From positions 20,373-84,372 of IMG/VR virus record IMGVR_UViG_3300012984_000568: DNA of 64,000 nt. One strand, 5' to 3'. The stretch is from a virus. A model generated the notes under the pieces. It searched no databases and was not told where the DNA came from. It saw only the letters and a program-made list of their open reading frames with translations. The number at the start of each line of letters is the position of its first letter. Positions within the stretch are counted from its first letter, which is position 1. Of the stretch, positions 3,512 to 56,191 are shown one piece after another. The position numbers were made by a program, and so were the translations under genes.

Positions 3512-4965
3512 ACATCGACAACATCGCCACGTGGACGCAGATCGCCTACCGCGCACCGGATAAGCGCCCATCACGCAAGCATAAGAAACGGCGCGCCCGC
3601 AACCTTCGACGCTGCCGAGTCGCGCTCGTTCGCTTCGCTGGCCACCACTTCACGGTGACAAGTGATCCCGCGAAGGTCAAGGCACACATCCAGCGGTTCG
3701 TCGACCAGTGGATGTTTTCGAAACCAATCAGGGTCCCGACGTCGCTGCGCGGACTTCTCGGAAAAACCGTGGGCACCGCTTGGTCGACCTGGAAGATGAC
3801 GCTCGACATGCAGGAGTTGATCGCCCAGGCAACGGCCATGGCGAATCAGATGAAGGCGAGTAACCCAGATGAGTAGTATTACTGACCAAGTCCGTTGCAT
3901 GGCCTGCGTAACCGAGAGCCTCGGCCCGCCGTTTCCAACGCCGCAACCGCAGCATGTCGATAGGTGCCCGTACGCGCCGACTACCCCAGCATCACCCGAG
4001 CCAGTGGAGCGATGTCCTGATTGCGACAGGCCGCTGTCTGGCGGCGATACCGGGACACTCGCGACGCATTGCTTCGCCAATCGTCAGGGTGATTGGCTCG
4101 GCGAGCGCCTCTGTCGCGACAACACCATCGCCCGCCTGCGCTCAGAGCTCGCCAGTGTACAGGCACTGAATGCGGCCGAGAAGAACGTGCTGTTTTCAGC
4201 CGAGCAGCTGCACAAGAAGCTCGTGAGCGAGTCGATTGACGACGAAGACACCGGGGTCGAGCTCGAGCTCGTGAACAGCGCGGTTCGCGTGCTCTTGGAC
4301 CTTCGAAAGGAAACGCCCAATGTTCCATTGTAGCATCAGCATCCTCACCCGAGACCTCCACCAAGTAGAGCGCGACATCATCACCGTCACCCAAGCTCGA
4401 ATGCGGGCGCCGACCCTGGCCAACCTGATATGCCTGGAAGAGTTGTTTGCGCGACGGGAGCGGGCGGTTCGTGATGTGGAGAGTCAGGTGCGTTGTGGTG
4501 CTTGAGACCGCCGAGGAATTCGAAAAGCGCGCGTCCGCCGGAGCGCCGACGCATGCGGAAGCCGTGGCGCTCATCAAGGAGCGAGATGCCGCCGTAGCTC
4601 GGGCTGCGAGGCTGGAGCTGCTGGATGAGCTAACCGAGCGAGGTTGCGAGTTGATGCGCGAAGCAGCAAACAACCCAGCGCTCGACCACGACACGGTGAT
4701 GTCGCGCATTGCCGGCGTGTTCGCGCAAGCGATTCGCGAGGCAAAGTCCAAATACGGAGCAGCAAAGGAGCCCGGGTGATGCGAAACCACAAGGTCGTTT
4801 TCAGGCTCTACGGCATCCGACGCCCGCTCAAGTGGCGCCGGCGCATGGCGCGCCAGAACCGCCGACTCGCTGACCAGCTTGGAAAGAAGTGGCGCGCGTG
4901 CCGCGGATCCCACTCTCGCTGGTGGGAGCAGGGGTTGATTGAATCGATGTTCGAAGGAGTTCGCT

Positions 4966-6138
4966 TTGACTGACCAATCTCGCCTCCAACGCGCCCTCCT
5001 GCTTGCCGACCTAGTTCCTGGAAAACCGAGTGACCCGGCGTCGCCTGGCTGGGGCGGAGTCGAAGCTGACCAGCTCACGGAAGCGCTGCTAGCCCACCGT
5101 GACCCTCAGGTGCGCATCGCGATAGCTGTCTCGAATCTGCTGCTCAAGGAGGCGAGCCGCGGCGCATTGCAGTCCTTCGACGAGCGAGAGGAGCAGGTGC
5201 ACCCGATTGCGAGGGCTCACCAGCCGTTACTCGACGGGCTGCGTGAGGCTCAATCCGAAGCCGAGGCAAACCCGAAGCTTCAGGAAAGAGTCGACGCGCA
5301 CCCGAGTGGATTCGTTCACCCAGCGCCAGCATCGCCACCCACAAAAGAACAAGAGCCGCCCGAAGACGACTCCCGCTCTGACCCTCGGCAGAAGAATCGC
5401 CAGAGAGCCGCCGTCCAAACTGACAAGGCCGGACAGGGAATGCATACCATGCCGCACGCTGAAAGTTACCTGGCCCCAGGTCTGCAATTCAAAACGCTAC
5501 GCGAGGAGCGCGACACCCTCCGCGCCAGAGTGGAGGAGCTGGAGGCGCGGCTCGGCGTGCTACCAGGCAACCCCGTCGAGGACGCAACGACTCGCCAGCA
5601 GCTGCAGCGAGGGCTCGACGACGTGGCCGGCGCGCTGGGCCGCCCGGCGCTTCTTGTAAGCGAGCACGGTCCGGCGGTGAAGGCCCGCATCCAGCAGCTC
5701 GAAGGCGAGCTAGCCACCCTGGGCTCAGCGTGCGACAAGATGCGCGTTCAGCACTCCGAGACATGCCGCGGCTTGGATGACGAAGCGAGCGAGCTGCGCA
5801 CCGAGGTCAACCGCATCAACGCCGAGCTAACCGAGCTGAAGCGCCAGCAGCCCTACATGGACGAAGAGCAGCGCGAGCTAGGGAGGCGTGAGCGGGATGG
5901 CGAGGTAGCGGAGCTGGTCAAGAAGCTGGAGGGCTGGGATGTAGTCGGCGACGCGCTTCGGGAGAGAGAGGCTGTTGTCGAAGCCGCGCGCCGAACGGCT
6001 GACGTGTGGGAGCGGATGTTTCGTGAGTCGCATTCCAGATTGAGTCGCGCCCGCACCCTGATGATGGTCGGCACTCGTGACGAGATTTCGAAGTTCGCGG
6101 AAAACCTAGACCACGAACCAAGCGAGACGAAGACATGA
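4966..6138 (+). CDS. Coiled-coil hypothetical protein
   Basis: TTG start after GAAGGAG; long E/R/L heptad-rich C-terminal half. Confidence 0.65.
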   Translation: MTDQSRLQRALLLADLVPGKPSDPASPGWGGVEADQLTEALLAHRDPQVRIAIAVSNLLLKEASRGALQSFDEREEQVHPIARAHQPLLDGLREAQSEAEANPKLQERVDAHPSGFVHPAPASPPTKEQEPPEDDSRSDPRQKNRQRAAVQTDKAGQGMHTMPHAESYLAPGLQFKTLREERDTLRARVEELEARLGVLPGNPVEDATTRQQLQRGLDDVAGALGRPALLVSEHGPAVKARIQQLEGELATLGSACDKMRVQHSETCRGLDDEASELRTEVNRINAELTELKRQQPYMDEEQRELGRRERDGEVAELVKKLEGWDVVGDALREREAVVEAARRTADVWERMFRESHSRLSRARTLMMVGTRDEISKFAENLDHEPSETKT

Positions 6139-6315
6139 GCAAGCGGGCGCCGAAGCGAATTTACCTCGAGATTTGGCCAGAGGGCACAAGTCGCGAAGAC
6201 CAGGTGCACTGCGAGCCTACTGGATACGGCGTCGACATGCGTACCGGGGCGACAAGTCGCATTGTCGCCTACGAGCGCGTGGCTCGACAGATGGCTACTG
6301 AACGAAAGGCGAAGC

Positions 6316-7341
6316 GTGGCACACGAAAACGATGACTACGACTTTCGGAGAGCTGCCCAACGAATGGCGCTCGATCCGACCGACGAGAACATGGGGGTGA
6401 CACTATCGGAAGACTTCTTGAACGAAGTTGCGCCGAAGGCCACACCCAACGACCTCCAATCCAAACTCGAAGACTCCAGCAACGTCATCACGCTTCACCA
6501 GCCGCTGAAGCCAGCACCTTGCCCGTTCTGTGGATGCGACGAGTGGGAATTCAATGGCGGCGACTCGGATGTCGTCGTCCAGTGTTGCGCTTGCTTGGCG
6601 GAGGGGCCGGTTGCGACCGTCGGGTGCCGCGGCGAGGATGAACTCGAAGGCGTTGACCTGGAATCGGAAGCGACGGAGCTCTGGAATAAGCGGCCCACTC
6701 AACAGCTCGCTGAGCTATGCGGAGACGCGAGTGGCTCGCTGCTTCTTGATGTCCAGCAGGATTGCATTGCGGCGAACAAACGATGCGCAGACCTAGAATC
6801 CAAGCTCGAAGCCCTCACCAACGCCGCCGCTGGCGCCCTCGGCTTCCTCCCTAGGAATGACCCTGGGGCTAGGATGGCGGCGGATAGGATTGAGAGGGTG
6901 CTGGGGGAGATTGGGGTGGCGTTACCGGCTCCAGCGCGTCCAATCGTTGTCGGTTCGAAGTGGCGCGACTCGGCGACCGAGAGCGAATTCACAGTGAAGA
7001 GAGTGGCGCGCGGAAAGGTGACGTACCTGACGCCAAAGGATGAATGCTGGGCGTTCCCAGAATACACGTGGGCTGAGGCGGTGTTCCGCAACAGCTTCGT
7101 TTGGGTCAGCGACCCCGAGCCAGCCAGCGAGCCTCGCGCGGTCGTCGTAAACAGCATCTGGCGCGGCAATGCCGGGCGCCGTTGTACGGTGCTCAAAATA
7201 TATCCAGGGGAAGACAGGTGCGTAAGCGCGGCATGGGAGGACGACCCAATCCCGATGCTTCTGTTTTCGAAGCATGCCTTCGTTGAGTTCTTTACCTGGA
7301 TCAGTGACCCTCCCGCCACCAGTGAGGGTGGGGAGCCGTGA
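6316..7341 (+). CDS. Lar-family zinc-ribbon protein with two C-terminal repeats
   Basis: LKPAPCPFCG...VQCCACLAEGP...WNKR Lar-like motif; two ~65 aa repeats (VVxSxWR..TV..F.W.SDP). Confidence 0.65.
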   Translation: MAHENDDYDFRRAAQRMALDPTDENMGVTLSEDFLNEVAPKATPNDLQSKLEDSSNVITLHQPLKPAPCPFCGCDEWEFNGGDSDVVVQCCACLAEGPVATVGCRGEDELEGVDLESEATELWNKRPTQQLAELCGDASGSLLLDVQQDCIAANKRCADLESKLEALTNAAAGALGFLPRNDPGARMAADRIERVLGEIGVALPAPARPIVVGSKWRDSATESEFTVKRVARGKVTYLTPKDECWAFPEYTWAEAVFRNSFVWVSDPEPASEPRAVVVNSIWRGNAGRRCTVLKIYPGEDRCVSAAWEDDPIPMLLFSKHAFVEFFTWISDPPATSEGGEP

Positions 7342-7485
7342 GGGCCTACACCCGAATGCGAATCAGGCAAGCCTGGGATACCGGGCCAGCAATTTTCGGA
7401 CGCTACCTAGCGACGTCAGTGGTAATTGGCTATGCAACGTGGCGCTTTACGATCTGGTTCTTTGGCCGGTGGTAGAGTCGAAGCC

Positions 7486-49597: not shown

Positions 49598-51763
49598 CTA
49601 TTTGGCGGGCAACAGCGCGCGCAGCCAATGGCGCTGCGCCAAGTACGTCACCTGGTCATTGTTCCGAAACAGTTCCTCCGCGCTGAAACGGGTGCTTGGC
49701 CCTACTGATCGACCCTTGAAGGCCGGCGCACGCGGACCGCTCGCCTTGAGCCTGTTCCCGTCAGCGAAGCGCAGCTCGTCAACTAGCTCGGGGTTGCTTT
49801 CGAGCACGCCCATCGTCGAACCGGTGGCGCGCCCCTTGAACACGGTGACTGTCTTTGGCTCCGCCACCCCCGCCTTGATGCGCTTCCACGCTGCTCTGTC
49901 GATGCGGGTCATTCGGAAGTGCTTTCCCGCGACCGTGGCGCGGTGACGATGACGCGCCCGCCGGCAATCTCAGCTGTCCAGCCCGCCACGCCGGACCGGC
50001 TCGTCAACTCATCGACCAATACGCGCAATGGGAACCCCATGCCTGCGAAGCGCGTAGCCAAGTATGTGAACACCGCCGAGACGGTGTCATGCACCGTTGG
50101 CCCATCAGGGCTGTCGTCTAGCGCTGACTTTTCACGCGGCGCGTCTGGTGGCCAGGGATAGGCCTTGGTCACGGGAGGTCCGCCCCTGCCGATATCGACA
50201 GCGACTGAACGCGATGGGCGCGGCAGCTGGCTAGTTGGCGGTCGCAGTGCCTCGACGAGCGTTCGTAGCCAAAAACCAGTCAATTCGCCGCGCTGCCCAC
50301 ATGCCTGGCACTCTCCGTCACCGTAATACCGCGACAGCTGCTCAAGCTGAGGCGTGCAGTTGACGCAGAGTTTGACGATGGTGTTCACGCGCCCTCCGGG
50401 TTTGCGTTCAGGTTGCAGTGCTCGCGCCAGCGTTCCGCGTCGGCCTCGCTGTGCTGCAGACGCGCGGCCAGCTCGAGCGCGCCTTCTGGGCTCAGCGTTG
50501 CCTTGTACGCGCGGAGCTCGTGCACTTCGTTAACCAGCGCGAGCAGCGCTTCGTTCGAGACTTTCGTCTCAAAGCTGCCAGGCGGCAGCATCGACAGCTC
50601 GCGCAGGGTCTCATCGGTCAATGGGCGAACATTGGCGAGCAGCTGCTCGCGCTCGTTGTTCAGCAGCCGCTCTCGAAGCTTCGCAACATCGAGCGCCGGT
50701 TTCGGCTGCGCCAATGGAATGAAGAGGGAAAGCGTCAACATCTTGCCGCTTCGGTGAGCGACTTCGGCAGCCTCGTACTCCGCCATGCTGTAAAGCGGAA
50801 GCACCACCTCACCGAATACGCCGCCTGAGCGCAGCGTGCATGACCCCACTGGTGCGCGCGAGTCGCGGAATGGGTTCGGCGATTCGTAGAGTAGGTCCGT
50901 GGCGTACACGCGCCAGTTGATACGCCCGTGTGGATGCGCCTCGACGAAGCTCTCGGGAGGTGGCGGCAGACGGTCAAAGACGGTGGTCACGCGCCCTCAC
51001 GCTTCCCGCCGATGCGTGGCGTCGCTGCACCCGGAGCGGTGGCGGCAATCAGCCTAGCAGCGCCGTCGGCGAGCTCGTGCACCTCGTGAGCGCTCAGCCG
51101 CAGCGGGTGCGCAGCGTCACCGGTGCTGACGGGTCTCGGTACTGCGGGAGCGGTGTGCTCCTTCAGCATTGCGAACATCTCGCGTGCAAGGGCAACGCGC
51201 TCTGAAGTGTCGGTTTGGTTGGTTTGTTCAGTCATTCGATTCTCACTTTCGGGCCAGGGTCGTCTTGAAGCGGGTAGGGTGGTGGCCAAATACAGGCCGC
51301 ATTCCAGCGTTCGGGCGATCCGATTGGCGCCGGCAGCGGCACTAGCTCTGGGATCCTCAATACTGCAGCGGTAGCAAGGTAGCGCGGCCACGTGAGCGTC
51401 AGCCCCACGCTGTCAACGCTCCCCCGATGGTCGCACGTATGCGAGTCGTCCAGCCGGCACCACACCTTCGTCTTCTCGCGAGTGGCAATCCACGTCACCT
51501 CTGTGTATGAGCCGCAGCGAATCACTTGCCGCTCCGATGCCTGGCTTTGAGAGCATGCTCCGCTACCGAATCCAGGAAACTGGACGTGCTGCGCAATTCT
51601 GCTCCAAGCAAGATGCAGAGCGTGCCCATGAAGGCAATGGGCCAAATGAAGAAGTTCAGCAGTGCTGTGTCCGATCCGGCGAAGCGCGCCGCGAACCACA
51701 CGGTTGCGCTGCCGAGAACCATCCAGGCCAAGATGATCGCGATAATGACCAGCGCCGTCGTCA
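49598..51763 (-). other. Run of small coupled hypothetical genes
   Basis: ORFs 49598-49912, 49909-50388, 50385-50990, 50987-51235, 51232-51525 and a TM protein ending at 51522, with 4-nt overlaps. Confidence 0.6.
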
Positions 51764-51975
51764 CGTGTTGCGCTCCGTGTCGGGGGTTGGCTCGAGCGGC
51801 GCGCCAACAGGGGCACATTGGCGCTGCTCAATTGCGACAAGGCGTGCTTCGACGCTGGCTTGGAATTCGTCGAGCACTTGGCAGAGTGAAGCGTTGATTC
51901 CCAGATGCCCCGAGTTCAGCTCTGTTTTTGGCATGAAGAACTCCAGGTAGCGCTCACTGATCTTCTGGCCTGGCT

Positions 51976-53448
51976 TCACTCGATCCTCCCTGGGCGCTTC
52001 TCGATGCCGCCCGGCTGAGCGCCGCCCATCGCGTCGCACTTCTCGATCACGAGCTCGGTCAGCTTTGATGCCAACAGTTCGGCGTAGCTCTCGCGCACCG
52101 CGTCTTGGATGTCATAGCGAATCAGCCCCGTCGCTTCTCCGGTGGCTCGGTGGCGCTGCAGCGCGCGCCGGGTAGCGCGGTTGACGATGCCAGTTACCAG
52201 CGCGCCGTTCAGCGCGTCACGGAGGCGAATCAGCTCAGCGCCATGTCGAAACTGCAACTCGTATAGAGTGGCAGTCTCACTATGCAGCAGCTGAGTGGCG
52301 TACTCGGCTAGTTCGTCGACGCTGGAATCGACATGGCGACCGCGCAGCGCGAGCGCCATGATCGTCTTGGTCGCCGCCGCATCAGGACGCCCGATCCGGA
52401 TCTTCCGGTCGATGCGCCCGTCTCGAACGATCGCCGGGTCGAGCGAGTCGGGGCGGTTCGTCGAGAGCATGACGAAGCACCCCGACTCGTCGAGGCCGTC
52501 CATTTCGGCCAGGAACATCGGGACGAGCGTTTGCGTGATCGCCATCGTGAGACCCTGGCCCTCGCGGGTGCCGAGCAGCGCATCGGCCTCATCGATGAAC
52601 AGCACCGCAGGGTTGCCCGTCTTTTCCTTGTGCGCTCGAGCGCGCGCGAACAACCCGCGCACCGCAGCCTCCGACGCACCCACGAATCGGTTCAGGACCT
52701 CGGCCGCTTTGACGTAGATGAACCCGCTCGAGTCACCGTCGACAGCGAGCGCGGTCGCGACGGCCTTGCCGAGCATCGTCTTGCCGGTACCGGGAGGGCC
52801 GTAGAGCAGCACGCCCTTGGTCGGCTTCTGGCCGTACGCCTTGTACGCCTCGGCGTAGCGAATCGGGTACTCGATGGCCTCGCGCAGCGCTTCTTTCGCT
52901 TCCTCGTGCCCGCCGATGTCATCCCAAGAAACACCCGGTGATTTGTGCACCACGTAGTCCGACGGCTCCTCGTTGCCGACGTTGCGCAGCACCACTTTGC
53001 CCGTGGGGTCGAGCTGCACCTTGTCCCCGACTCGGGCGCTGATGGTCGAGGGCAGGAAGGCTGTTTGCTGCAGCATGCCCTGGTCGTACATGACGTCGTG
53101 CCCAGTCTTGCCGGCCACGGTCACCACGGGACCGAAGTTCACGTGCGCTGGGAGGACTTCGAGGATCGAATTCGATTCAGCCGCGATCGAGACCTGAGCG
53201 CCAGCCTTGCAGCCGTCGGGCAGCTTCAGGCTCATCTGCCCATTCATCGCGAATACCATGCCGCGCTGGCCGGGTAGAACGCAGCCGACAGTGCCGATGA
53301 GCTGAGGCTTTTCTCGCGTGCGGTTGAGCGTGTCGTTCGCCTGTTTAAGCTGGTAACGGAGCTTTTCCTCCTCGGTTCGGAACTCGTCAGGTTGAATCTG
53401 GAATGGGTTGACGGTGAATGGCCTGGTGAAGAGTTTGTATTCGGTCAC
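51976..53448 (-). CDS. ARC/Mpa-like proteasome-type AAA+ ATPase
   Basis: N-terminal coiled coil, beta-rich interdomain, VSWDDIGG, GPPGTGKT, VLNRFVG pore loop, FIDEAD, STNRPDSLDPAIVRDGRID; ARC-like helical lid. Confidence 0.85.
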   Translation of the reverse strand: MTEYKLFTRPFTVNPFQIQPDEFRTEEEKLRYQLKQANDTLNRTREKPQLIGTVGCVLPGQRGMVFAMNGQMSLKLPDGCKAGAQVSIAAESNSILEVLPAHVNFGPVVTVAGKTGHDVMYDQGMLQQTAFLPSTISARVGDKVQLDPTGKVVLRNVGNEEPSDYVVHKSPGVSWDDIGGHEEAKEALREAIEYPIRYAEAYKAYGQKPTKGVLLYGPPGTGKTMLGKAVATALAVDGDSSGFIYVKAAEVLNRFVGASEAAVRGLFARARAHKEKTGNPAVLFIDEADALLGTREGQGLTMAITQTLVPMFLAEMDGLDESGCFVMLSTNRPDSLDPAIVRDGRIDRKIRIGRPDAAATKTIMALALRGRHVDSSVDELAEYATQLLHSETATLYELQFRHGAELIRLRDALNGALVTGIVNRATRRALQRHRATGEATGLIRYDIQDAVRESYAELLASKLTELVIEKCDAMGGAQPGGIEKRPGRIE

Positions 53449-53840
53449 GGAGCAGAGGAGCCTTTCTTCAATTCGGAGATGGAGAAACAGACTTCGCCGA
53501 TGGCGTCTGGGCCGTGGCGGCGGTTGATGCTCGCTGCGCGGTGGAGCAGCTGGCGAGCGAGTGTTTCGTCACGCTTTGCGACGATGAGCACGCGCTCGCA
53601 CTCTTCGGGACTGAACGGGAACTCGACCGCGAGCGCTTTCGCTTGCGTCAGGTCGGGACCTGGCGGTTCAGTCCGCGGCGCTGGTGGCTTCGGGTCGGGC
53701 CCGAATGTGGTGGTGAGCCAGCCGAAAATCTCGTCAGGCGTGACGAGCGGACCCGCTGCGGGCTTCACGCGCGGCAGCCGCGGCCCGCGGTCGATGTACG
53801 GGTGTTCCGGATCTTCACTGTTCCAGCGATCGTCACTCAT
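53445..53840 (-). CDS. Protein with C-terminal UBA-like three-helix motif
   Basis: KALAVEFPFSPEECERVLIVAKRDETLARQLL after a Pro-rich linker; GTGA coupled to the ATPase. Confidence 0.5.
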   Translation of the reverse strand: MSDDRWNSEDPEHPYIDRGPRLPRVKPAAGPLVTPDEIFGWLTTTFGPDPKPPAPRTEPPGPDLTQAKALAVEFPFSPEECERVLIVAKRDETLARQLLHRAASINRRHGPDAIGEVCFSISELKKGSSAP

Positions 53841-54459
53841 CGCAGGATGTCCTTCGGATCGCGCGTCCTGTTGAGGTAGTCCCGAACCTGGTCCGTCAAG
53901 CGCGCGAGTCGGGTGGCTCGAGGTGTCACGGCTCGGTCTTCGGTAACGTACTTCACCATGCGGTGGAGCAGTGCTCGGCCCTCGCGGCGTCGCCCATCAA
54001 GCTCAGCGATGCGCGCTTGGCTCGATGCGGCACCGCGCTCGAACGCCGAGAGCGCGACTACCTGCAGAGGCGCCGAGCGGCAGCAGCGGGGGCACCACCA
54101 ATGGTCTGCTTCGCTATTCACAATCTCGGAGTCGCACCCGTACGGGCATGCTAGGTGAGGGCCGGCGAGGGTCATCGGCTCCGTCATCGGCGGCCTGCCT
54201 TTCGCTTGGCGCGCTCGGCTTTGCGCTTTGCCCGCTTGGCCTTCTGCGCAGCGGTGAACACCGGTTGGTGTTGGCGCTTCGGTGGTTCAGGCGCCGGCGG
54301 CGCGGCGGGCAGAGCTCGCCTGGGTTCGGGCATCGCTGGCCCTGGCGCGAAGTCCGGTCGGCCGCTTCCGCCGAAGCCAATGCCGCCGGTGCTCGCGATC
54401 GCCATGAGTGCCATCAGCTGCAGCGGGCTACGGCGGCGTAGCGGGTTTTGGTCAGCCAT
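53837..54459 (-). other. Two small hypothetical genes (53837-54187, 54184-54459)
   Basis: Coupled ORFs; one has a CxxxC/CxxC zinc ribbon, the other a basic tail. Confidence 0.55.
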
Positions 54460-55306
54460 CGGCGGCGAGCCTCATCGCTGGGCGTGGAGTCTTCGCGAGT
54501 CGGTCAGCAAGCGCGGTCAGCTCGGCACCGCGCAGGGTTTTCGCGGCATCGCGCGCCTTGGCGCCGTACAGGCCCGCCTCGGCGTTCTCGAGCGCCAGGT
54601 TGCGCGCGCGCCGTAGCTCTTCGTCCGACGCTGGCGGTGGCCCGCCACGGGGCGAGGCGCGCGGCTCTGAGCGCTTGGGCTTCTTGGCCTCGTCGCGCAG
54701 CCAAAGCTCAAAACAGGCGTCCTGGTCGACCATCTGCCGCCCCTTGCCCTTGGCCTGAGCCTTGAAGCGCTTGAACTCGTAGGCGACGTCCAACCCGAGC
54801 TCGGCGCCGAGTGCTTGGTGCTCTGGGGTTGGCTCTGCCAATTCGCTGGTGTGTGTGTGATCCGGAGAGGAGGGGGAGTGGAGAGGAGAGGGAATCGTGA
54901 CGCCTACCGTGACAGGCTGCGGCGGTTCGTCGTCTGTCCCACCGTGACCACCTCCGTGACCGCCACGTGACTTGGCTTTTCTGAGCCGTGCCGCTTCGCG
55001 CGCCTTCAGCACCTCGTCACGCGAGGACGACCAGTCGAGGTAGTCGTGCATGAGCATTTGGTCATCGGCTTCGTGGAGCAAACCGACCGTAACCAGTGCG
55101 GCAAGGGCCGCGGCGCGCTTCTTTGGGTTGGCTGGCCCACGTACCTCATCGAGCATGTCCTTGGGGATCGCGCCGTCTGTCAGGTGCTTGCCGCAATATG
55201 CGCGCAGCCCAAGCCAAAGGTGAATTGCCTCACTGCCCCCGAGCTTCGCCGCTCTGATGAACTTCGGGTGATCGAGAATACCGTCGTCGAGTTCCAGCCA
55301 GCTCAT
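54452..55306 (-). CDS. Phage replication initiator/replisome organizer
   Basis: MSWLELDDGILDHPKF, A..LW, TDG.I, MHDYLDW; P/S-rich linker typical of O-like proteins. Confidence 0.75.
   Translation of the reverse strand: MSWLELDDGILDHPKFIRAAKLGGSEAIHLWLGLRAYCGKHLTDGAIPKDMLDEVRGPANPKKRAAALAALVTVGLLHEADDQMLMHDYLDWSSSRDEVLKAREAARLRKAKSRGGHGGGHGGTDDEPPQPVTVGVTIPSPLHSPSSPDHTHTSELAEPTPEHQALGAELGLDVAYEFKRFKAQAKGKGRQMVDQDACFELWLRDEAKKPKRSEPRASPRGGPPPASDEELRRARNLALENAEAGLYGAKARDAAKTLRGAELTALADRLAKTPRPAMRLAADG
54896..54971. repeat. Iteron-like CGTGAC repeats (candidate origin)
   Basis: CGTGAC at 54896, 54908, 54943, 54955 and 54966 inside the initiator gene. Confidence 0.6.
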
Positions 55307-55588
55307 CTCACCATCCCGTCCATTTCGTTTCCACCAATGTGCCCCTGTCCATCGGTTGCTTTGCGCGCGAGACACGTGTGCGCGCGGCCTTGCCGGCGCG
55401 TCGGCGAGCTGACTCAGCCCTGCCAGCGTCGAGCTCGGCTTCGGTCTTTGACGTGATCGCTCGAGCGCGCCACGCTGGAAGCCTCGAGGCAAGCGTCACG
55501 ACCGTTGGAGGCGTCGTTGCTGGCGTGCCGCCGCCGCGATTCAGACAAGCATCGCAGTCGCAGCACAGCGCGTGCCCCTCGGTGAAGC

Positions 55589-56191
55589 TCATTGGCGGGC
55601 CCCCGTTCGCAGCTCGATGATCACGCAACCTTCACCAGGCGGAGCCGGCTCCCAAATCTGGTGCACCTCGATCACCGAGCCCTTGTCGTTGACCAGGTAG
55701 CCGAGCCCCGGCACCGAGCGCTTACTGGTCTTCTTGCGCTTCGTTGGCACGCACAGCTTGTCGACCGGGATTTTCCCCCAATCGCTCGTTGGGTCCGTTT
55801 CGATGTGCGAGAAGCGGCGACAAATCACCTGCGGTCGCCCGCCCAACGGCGCGCTCGCTCGGCCGTTCGCTTGCAGCAGCATCAGCTGCCCGACCTTCGC
55901 TTTTATCTCCCCCTGCGACCAACCCGACGCGCCACGGGTGGCGTTCGAGGTCGGGCACAGGTGCAGTGGAAGCGCGCACTGAAGCACGAGCTGCCCCTTG
56001 GGCTTCGGGCGAACGATCCAGTTCAGCGCCGGCGGCCGAGACAAGATGTCGTGTGCCAGCGCGAACGCCTTCGGAATGTTGAAGTGCGGATGAGCCTTCG
56101 GGCGGCGTTTCGGTGCCTTCTTGCCTGTGACCAGCGCGGTCACCTTGGCCATCAGTGACGCCTTCGAGAGGCGCTTCTTTGCGACCTTCAT
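55589..56191 (-). CDS. RusA-like Holliday junction resolvase
   Basis: LP..PTSN, D..SD.GK..VDKL, G.LVND motifs. Confidence 0.55.
   Translation of the reverse strand: MKVAKKRLSKASLMAKVTALVTGKKAPKRRPKAHPHFNIPKAFALAHDILSRPPALNWIVRPKPKGQLVLQCALPLHLCPTSNATRGASGWSQGEIKAKVGQLMLLQANGRASAPLGGRPQVICRRFSHIETDPTSDWGKIPVDKLCVPTKRKKTSKRSVPGLGYLVNDKGSVIEVHQIWEPAPPGEGCVIIELRTGARQ

Follow-up and report, generated by a model that had tools for sequence, protein, structure and literature searches.

What does an unfoldase of proteasomal type do in a phage that carries no proteasome? The question is raised by a gene for a 490-aa AAA+ ATPase in a soil virus, studied here within a 64-kb window (64,000 nt, bases 20373-84372 of the 84-kb IMG/VR provirus record IMGVR_UViG_3300012984_000568; positions below are those of the window). 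The ATPase resembles ARC/Mpa, on which work has dealt almost exclusively with its part as gatekeeper of the Pup-proteasome in actinobacteria: the C-terminal GQYL of ARC/Mpa opens the 20S gate, and the long N-terminal coiled coil of Mpa binds Pup. A preliminary description of the locus had proposed that the ATPase is an ARC/Mpa-type unfoldase without a docking tail, and that it forms a two-gene module with the product of the gene directly upstream, a 131-aa protein taken for a UBA-type adaptor. The first proposal is upheld by the comparisons reported below, and the second is contradicted by gene co-occurrence. In our reading, the ATPase is probably a stand-alone ARC-like unfoldase or segregase that acts without a proteasome and is carried as an accessory cassette in an early/replication operon.

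Domain architecture and family placement of the ATPase

Both open reading frames (ORFs), for the 131-aa protein and for the ATPase, were found on the minus strand where the preliminary description had placed them. The end of the former (...SSAP-TGA) and the GTG start of the latter overlap by GTGA within the sequence ccGTGAcc. The motif set of a classical AAA unfoldase is complete in the ATPase, comprising Walker A and B, a pore loop of the aromatic-hydrophobic-Gly type, sensor-1, and a second region of homology (SRH) with Arg fingers. The motor had been described as intact from the same motifs, and across the 35 relatives in the alignment and profile of the ATPase family (A1) Walker A and B, the pore-loop Gly, sensor-1, and the Arg fingers are invariant. 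Coordinates of all features are collected in Table 1.

While a Pfam search of the whole protein detects the AAA domain only, the AlphaFold2 (AF2) model (predicted local distance difference test score, pLDDT, 86) outlines a four-part organization. The N-terminal part, announced earlier as a coiled coil, is predicted as one 20-residue helix; it leads into a junction whose Pro is conserved in A1. The beta-rich interdomain resolves in the model into two five-stranded beta domains (residues 49-98 and 108-158), which the structural alignment matches with the two tandem OB domains of Mpa, and the sequence of this region gives weak matches to the coiled-coil/OB segment of PAN/Rpt and to PF16450. Behind the AAA module, the model has a counterpart of the Mpa-specific C-terminal beta-grasp domain, where the structural alignment reaches Mpa residue 589. 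The segment LYELQF...IVNRA (residues 395-425), previously quoted as the AAA lid, belongs to this domain, in which it makes up a beta-hairpin and a helix. The protein ends with KRPGRIE, as had been read, with Ile as the penultimate residue and neither GQYL nor HbYX; the closest relatives in A1 end with GRLE, GRIQ or GRVD.

Family comparisons agree with this layout. For the whole ATPase, the top NCBIfam family is TIGR03689, with 248.8 bits over residues 65-457, against a family cutoff of 504.75; true ARC proteins of Actinomycetaceae used as controls (L113, L114, L132) score 552-578 bits. With the AAA module alone, pup_AAA ranks first with 210 bits, followed by CDC48 (193), PAN (178), and FtsH (155). 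The C-terminal 105 aa alone match only positions 415-481 of TIGR03689 (E 5e-4), and the N-terminal 165 residues alone match only the PAN coiled-coil/OB region (E 0.004). Aligned as a profile, A1 positions 9-455 correspond to Mpa 67-564 in one unbroken alignment of 300 bits, which begins inside the Mpa coiled coil, at residue 67, the helix of the phage protein facing the distal portion of that coil. Foldseek on the AF2 model returned Mpa chains as all of its top ~30 matches (best E 4e-33, ~470-480 columns), with Rpt subunits next at E-25. In VIA-align, Mpa reached Z 30.4 over 431 residues (model 47-487 to Mpa 97-589), and the PAN AAA module Z 26.8 over 258 residues.

Likeness to Mpa/ARC (TIGR03689; PDB 5KWA, 5KZF, 7PX9-7PXD, 7LJF) is therefore seen in the collinear order of N-terminal helix, two OB domains, one AAA module, and Mpa-specific C-terminal domain, in the type of pore loop, and in TIGR03689 ranking first among families whether the whole protein, the AAA module or the C-terminal part is searched. 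Two OB domains and an extra C-terminal domain are the features that set Mpa apart from PAN/Rpt, which have one OB domain and a HbYX tail (PMC8142254). Both distinguishing features are present in the AF2 model of the ATPase. With PAN and Rpt1-6 it shares the coiled-coil-Pro-OB junction, the AAA module (Z 25-27), and weak N-domain matches to PAN and Rpt3; it differs from them in its two OB-like domains, the extra C-terminal domain, the tail R-I-E, and lower family scores (178-192 bits). Cdc48/p97 has an N-domain and two tandem AAA modules, in contrast to the single AAA module and OB N-region of the phage protein.

We have also placed the ATPase in a FastTree phylogeny of the AAA and C-terminal regions, built from 139 rows with no PAN, Rpt or FtsH among them. 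True ARC, six archaeal ARC-like sequences, and a group of 110 rows form one clade (97*), with Cdc48-like sequences outside. The 110-row group, in which the window ATPase is found, comprises sequences of phages, Candidate Phyla Radiation (CPR) bacteria, Bacteroidales, and Alphaproteobacteria. Tree, family scores, and OB domains all point to ARC, and not to a generic FtsH/Cdc48-like ATPase devoid of OB domains. Taken together, the protein is, by sequence and modelled structure, of ARC/Mpa type along its entire length.

It is nevertheless not an ARC orthologue, because it scores half the family cutoff, lacks GQYL or HbYX, has no Pup or proteasome genes in its provirus, and has relatives whose genomes lack the Pup ligase (see below). 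Further differences from Mpa/ARC are the identity of ~30%, a far shorter N-terminal helix, and its presence on a phage, as a cassette-like gene, in a clade separate from true ARC. Its place is instead in an extensive set of ARC-like proteins, borne mostly by phages, CPR, and DPANN, that adjoins canonical actinobacterial ARC. Members of the family were found at 67 IMG/VR loci and in at least 475 stretches of species-representative genomes. Many metagenome relatives are named 'proteasome-associated ATPase' by the Joint Genome Institute (JGI), an annotation shared by two Brevundimonas phages. In the literature, no paper on phage ARC-like ATPases was found, the sole trace being an incidental 'mpa' annotation in Prevotella.

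One subclade of relatives (P0006-P0024, A1 columns ~700-734) shows a conserved C-terminal extension ending in ...VQ..(G)GAxN, a possible docking peptide; the window protein has no such extension.

The variable slot and the companion genes

The provirus, estimated by CheckV to be ~97% complete and recovered from soil metagenome DNA, carries genes for terminase, portal, prohead protease, major head, tail sheath, and baseplate hub, and represents a temperate soil myovirus. The terminases nearest to its own among cultured phages are 44-47% identical and come from mixed hosts. The ATPase gene is located ~1 kb downstream of the replication initiator gene, in the same operon. A scan for promoters and terminators near the ATPase and 131-aa genes gave nothing above shuffled expectation, and no Rfam match at gathering threshold was obtained within the window.

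Two contigs carry the same neighbourhood and no ATPase. The first, a metagenome contig (L068), has a homologue of o259, an initiator 79% identical, and a homologue of the 131-aa protein 69% identical. In it, the 131-aa homologue is ATGA-coupled to a gene for 161 aa, the C-terminal half of which matches the window gene at 50987-51391. The initiator is kept in L068 as well as in another locus, L069. The second was disclosed by comparing Logan contigs with window positions 50300-55600. This 46.6-kb rhizosphere metagenome contig from a different study (X2) matches 50461-51252 (92%), 51382-51995 (95%), parts of the 131-aa gene, and the initiator. Positions 51995 and 53566 are joined in it by 661 nt, in place of the 1570 nt with the ATPase in the window. 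A segment of this size is too small for the 1473-nt ATPase gene, and X2 is thus without the ATPase at this place.

The reverse inspection, of loci around relatives of the ATPase, gave a corresponding result. A homologue of the 131-aa protein accompanies the ATPase in none of the 67 viral loci and was not detected in the 80 genomic loci (147 in total, none of them a locus of P0002-P0005, the nearest homologues of the ATPase at 58-83% identity). Because L068 and X2 keep the 131-aa gene and its flanks without the ATPase, and no 131-aa homologue is found at the loci of ATPase relatives, the 131-aa gene belongs to the backbone of the phage group, and the slot beside it is variable, with the ATPase as an exchangeable insert. 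The GTGA overlap of the 131-aa and ATPase genes most likely reflects tight translational coupling that is usual in this operon, and not a dedicated partnership.

The slot downstream of the 131-aa gene (window 51995-53566) is a mosaic hot spot, occupied by the ATPase in the window, by the 161-aa gene in L068 (2604-3089), and by the 661-nt segment in X2. At the junction, X2 still has 20 nt from the very end of the ATPase gene (...PGRIE-stop).

The other side of the slot was also characterized. An apparent gap of 585 nt after the ATPase was found, by frame reading, to hold two small ORFs (window 51522-51934, minus strand), one for 57 aa and one for ~80 aa with two transmembrane (two-TM) segments. 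Both are 95% identical in the ATPase-less X2, and the two-TM ORF is conserved in a further contig, X4, in addition to X2. The tail of the 57-aa ORF, ...PDTERNT, recurs in o114 of L068, away from any ATPase. Two identifications were considered for these ORFs and rejected: the 57-aa ORF as a Pup-like partner (hhalign probability 0.2%) and the two-TM ORF as DUF1360 (no match). The latter ORF has no Pfam, DUF1360 or PADLOC match.

In many relatives, a mini-protein gene comes directly after the ATPase stop; its product has a helix of Pup type (..VDDLL.EID.aL..) and, as a rule, CxC at the C-terminus. Mini-proteins of 59-89 aa with the helix (..P.VDD.L.EID.AL..) and CxC(W) are present at L002, L003, L006, L007, L010-L013, L016, L023, L034, L071-L083, and L111. 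Compared as a profile (family A3) with three true Pup sequences, they align over the Mpa-binding helix with an hhalign probability of 81% (E 1.3e-5). The Pfam Pup model matches just two of 30 relatives' mini-proteins, at E ~0.07, and profile-profile comparison was needed to show their Pup-likeness. In 18 of the 67 viral loci, ATPase and mini-protein are followed by a membrane protein of the DUF1360 family (PF07098) that carries the motif CPYCxSHW (e.g. L013 3075-3461, L006 7253-7672).

Other variants of the mini-protein were also observed. Those of Bacteroidales (L087-L101) combine the helix with an acidic tail and have no Cys, and a third variant ends with C.C.....C.IGPF (L022, L024, L028, L030).

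The window shares its ATPase clade with these phage/CPR cassettes, which likewise have no ligase or proteasome genes; unlike them, it has neither mini-protein nor DUF1360, and its downstream small ORFs are backbone genes. A hidden Markov model (HMM) search for Pup-like or mini-protein ORFs within the window gave nothing below E 3.8, and DUF1360 had no match there. Because no window ORF matches mini-protein/Pup or DUF1360, and both small ORFs occur without the ATPase in X2, the window ATPase is an orphan motor, without the companions usual in its family.

Possible roles of the ATPase

In the whole 84-kb provirus record, and not only in the window for which this had been noted, no Pup, Pup ligase (pafA/dop) or 20S gene was found in searches with PF03136, PF05639, and PF00227; PrcAB, like Pup, Dop, and PafA, is a point of difference from Mpa/ARC systems. 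The Pup ligase (PF03136) was also not found in seven genomes that carry ATPase relatives of the phage clade (Hyphomicrobium, Bosea, Ancylobacter, Sphingobium, Maritalea, a Pseudobdellovibrionaceae metagenome-assembled genome (MAG), and a gammaproteobacterial MAG). As a control, three true-ARC genomes each carry Dop and PafA, and the true ARC genes of L113, L114, and L132 have Dop, Pup, and PafA adjoining. Across 39 viral ATPase loci, the annotated neighbours belong to replication and recombination (helicases, SSB, primase, Erf, and the like), with no protease among them.

From its domain plan, the ATPase is expected to be a ring-forming, presumably hexameric, unfoldase of the ARC/Mpa kind that threads its substrate at the expense of ATP. 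A target polypeptide would be drawn through the OB/AAA channel and be unfolded or stripped from a complex. The enzyme most likely works without a proteasome, as a stand-alone unfoldase or segregase, for which corynebacterial ARC offers a precedent of ARC acting without a proteasome. As an exchangeable accessory cassette in the slot between the 131-aa gene and the 57-aa/two-TM pair, it would be expressed along with the early/replication genes.

Several points weigh against this interpretation. At half of the TIGR03689 cutoff, orthology gives no ground for carrying the function of ARC over to this protein. With an N-terminal helix of just 20 residues, it may recognise substrates in a way different from Mpa. 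The tree was made by FastTree only, without PAN, Rpt and FtsH rows. Finally, the host might supply a proteasome-like or other peptidase partner.

The existence of a large phage/CPR clade with the same four-part architecture, without proteasome, ligase or docking tail, implies a second, proteasome-free use of this machine, traded by phages as a module. The window then represents the minimal case, the motor alone, even without the Pup-like peptide of its relatives. Natural ATPase-minus variants of the same backbone make a clean genetic comparison of near-isogenic phages possible. A bolder scenario, to which we attach little weight at present, is that phage ARC-like unfoldases are a widespread, unstudied, proteasome-free 'unfold-only' class swapped as cassettes; the orphan copy would have lost, or never had, the Pup-like peptide, would recognise its target through the N-terminal helix and OB ring, and would dismantle a specific host complex (immune or replication-control) early after induction or infection.

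Alternatives were weighed on the same data. The roles put forward in the preliminary description, in counter-defence, ubiquitin-like tagging or replisome remodelling, are speculative. The ATPase gene might be a moron-type defence or counter-defence gene, whose product unfolds either an immune complex of the host or the proteins of another, superinfecting phage. Such a role would fit a gene that comes and goes in a variable slot flanked by conserved backbone genes, and PADLOC reports weak similarity to IetA (73 bits) and TRIP13 (61 bits); however, these matches are generic AAA similarity far under the ARC score, and no known defence partner gene adjoins, so we regard this role as unlikely.

We are still more doubtful about a remodeller of the replication module, which would, for example, act at the phage origin by releasing or recycling initiator, helicase loader or SSB complexes. 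The vicinity of the initiator within one operon suggests it, as does the finding that the closest relatives with context come after genes for DnaB-like helicase, SSB, and primase. Closely related phages that share this initiator do without the ATPase in replication, which makes it dispensable for that replication module, and early operons are typical sites of accessory genes as well.

An improbable role, in view of the tail and the neighbourhood, is that of the unfoldase half of a protease, docking on a host 20S, HslV/Anbu-like or ClpP peptidase through a non-canonical tail. The relatives ARC, PAN, and Rpt all feed peptidases (PMC8142254). Extreme C-termini are kept within subclades, the five closest sequences sharing GR[IVL][EQD] and the subclade after them ...GGAxN, but conservation of the tail among proteins 58-83% identical is not above background. 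Neither GQYL nor HbYX is present, Ile being the penultimate residue, no peptidase gene lies beside any relative examined, and ATPase genes of the phage clade occur in bacteria without a Pup system. A stand-alone, proteasome-independent unfoldase remains the preferred explanation for the ATPase.

The upstream 131-aa protein and other features of the locus

The 131-aa protein was assigned to no family. Seven relatives, 48-69% identical to it, make up with it an eight-member family (A2). No match was found in Pfam, PHROGs, NCBIfam, PDB sequences, the phage collection or PADLOC, the family gave no Pfam UBA, TS-N or CUE match even at E <= 10, and a search for longer or fused forms returned none. 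In its AF2 model (pLDDT 69), a beta-hairpin and a Pro-rich linker precede four helices at about 63-127. The three-helix pattern noticed in the preliminary description is present as helix-loop-helix-loop-helix at residues 63-106, and the match to a UBA fold is non-significant: in Foldseek, Mud1, Cbl-b, and EF-Ts are among the best hits, all at E >= 1.4, with UBA rows at E 1.8-4.5. In VIA-align, the helices at ~65-106 superpose on EF-Ts N-domains with Z 6.2 (48 residues, root-mean-square deviation 1.7-1.8 A, 15-23% identity), a score equalled by AAA+ lid domains and a chitosanase. ESM Atlas gave sub-threshold leads only (YccJ, 0.77), with a UBA-containing cluster as structural row 1 (TM 0.33).

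The protein shares with UBA/TS-N three helices over ~45 residues and the superposition on EF-Ts N-domains, and differs from them in its fourth helix, in the lack of a significant sequence or fold score, and in equally good matches to AAA+ lids. Its loop after helix 1 is EF-PFSP, as opposed to the Gly-aromatic loop usual in UBA domains. The model suggests a real but weak resemblance to UBA/EF-Ts, which is not diagnostic.

That the 131-aa protein is a UBA-type adaptor delivering tagged substrates to the ATPase, in a dedicated two-gene remodelling module, is very improbable and already largely refuted by co-occurrence: the GTGA overlap, the superposition on EF-Ts, the UBA entries among top Foldseek matches, and the Atlas cluster speak for it, but the fold matches are all below significance, the gene is present in L068 and X2, both of which lack the ATPase, is coupled in L068 to an unrelated gene, has no homologue at the 147 loci of ATPase relatives, and no ubiquitin-like or Pup-like gene was found within the window. 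On present evidence, the supposed adaptor is a misleading lead and should not be pursued as a partner of the ATPase.

Table 1. Positions of the ATPase, its domains and motifs, and neighbouring genes in the window
Feature	Position	Strand	Basis and remarks
ARC/Mpa-like AAA+ ATPase gene, 490 aa	51976-53448	-	GTG start, TGA stop; ORF list, TIGR03689, Foldseek, VIA-align, alignment A1
N-terminal helix, residues 26-45	53314-53373	-	AF2 secondary structure; followed by conserved Pro junction EKPQLIGTV (46-54)
Tandem OB-like beta domains, residues 47-100 and 106-160	52969-53310	-	AF2 model; VIA-align to Mpa
Classical AAA module, residues 170-385	52294-52941	-	PF00004, E 7e-33
Walker A GPPGTGKT, residues 217-224	52777-52800	-	Motif reading
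Pore loop RFVG, residues 254-257	52678-52689	-	Motif reading
Walker B LFIDEAD, residues 283-289	52582-52602	-	Motif reading
Sensor-1 STNRPD, residues 329-334	52447-52464	-	Motif reading
Arg-finger block RDGRIDRK, residues 342-349	52402-52425	-	Motif reading
Mpa-type C-terminal domain, residues 386-490	51979-52293	-	Beta-hairpin 394-408 and helices; TIGR03689 match, structural alignment
131-aa protein, no family assigned	53445-53840	-	Family A2; AF2 model; backbone gene of phage group
57-aa ORF	51761-51934	-	Absent from original ORF list; GGAG ribosome-binding site; backbone gene
~80-aa two-TM ORF	51522-51764	-	GTG start overlaps stop of 57-aa ORF (GTGA); backbone gene
Replication initiation protein	54452-55492	-	phrog_2447, E 1.5e-30; heads long minus-strand early operon holding the ATPase

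Upstream, the 131-aa gene is adjoined by an ORF for a zinc-ribbon-like protein of 116 aa (CPYGC...CPRCC; window 53837-54187, minus strand), conserved at 55% in L069.

Some observations were made on relatives and controls. The true ARC proteins of Actinomycetaceae at L113, L114, and L132 (with L150-L155), encoded beside dop-pup-pafA, end with IPES, ANRD or GKLI, without GQYL. One viral locus (L017) has two tandem AAA ATPase genes, at 4309-5802 and 6043-7479, the upstream one matching a different PHROG, phrog_10440. At L128-L149, two-domain Cdc48-like ATPases of Thermodesulfobacteriota, Planctomycetota, and others precede a conserved protein of 270-340 aa ending in ...GPWPPYSF; this gene pair is recurrent (e.g. 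L128 9671-10696, L136 9663-10469) and unrelated to the window ATPase.

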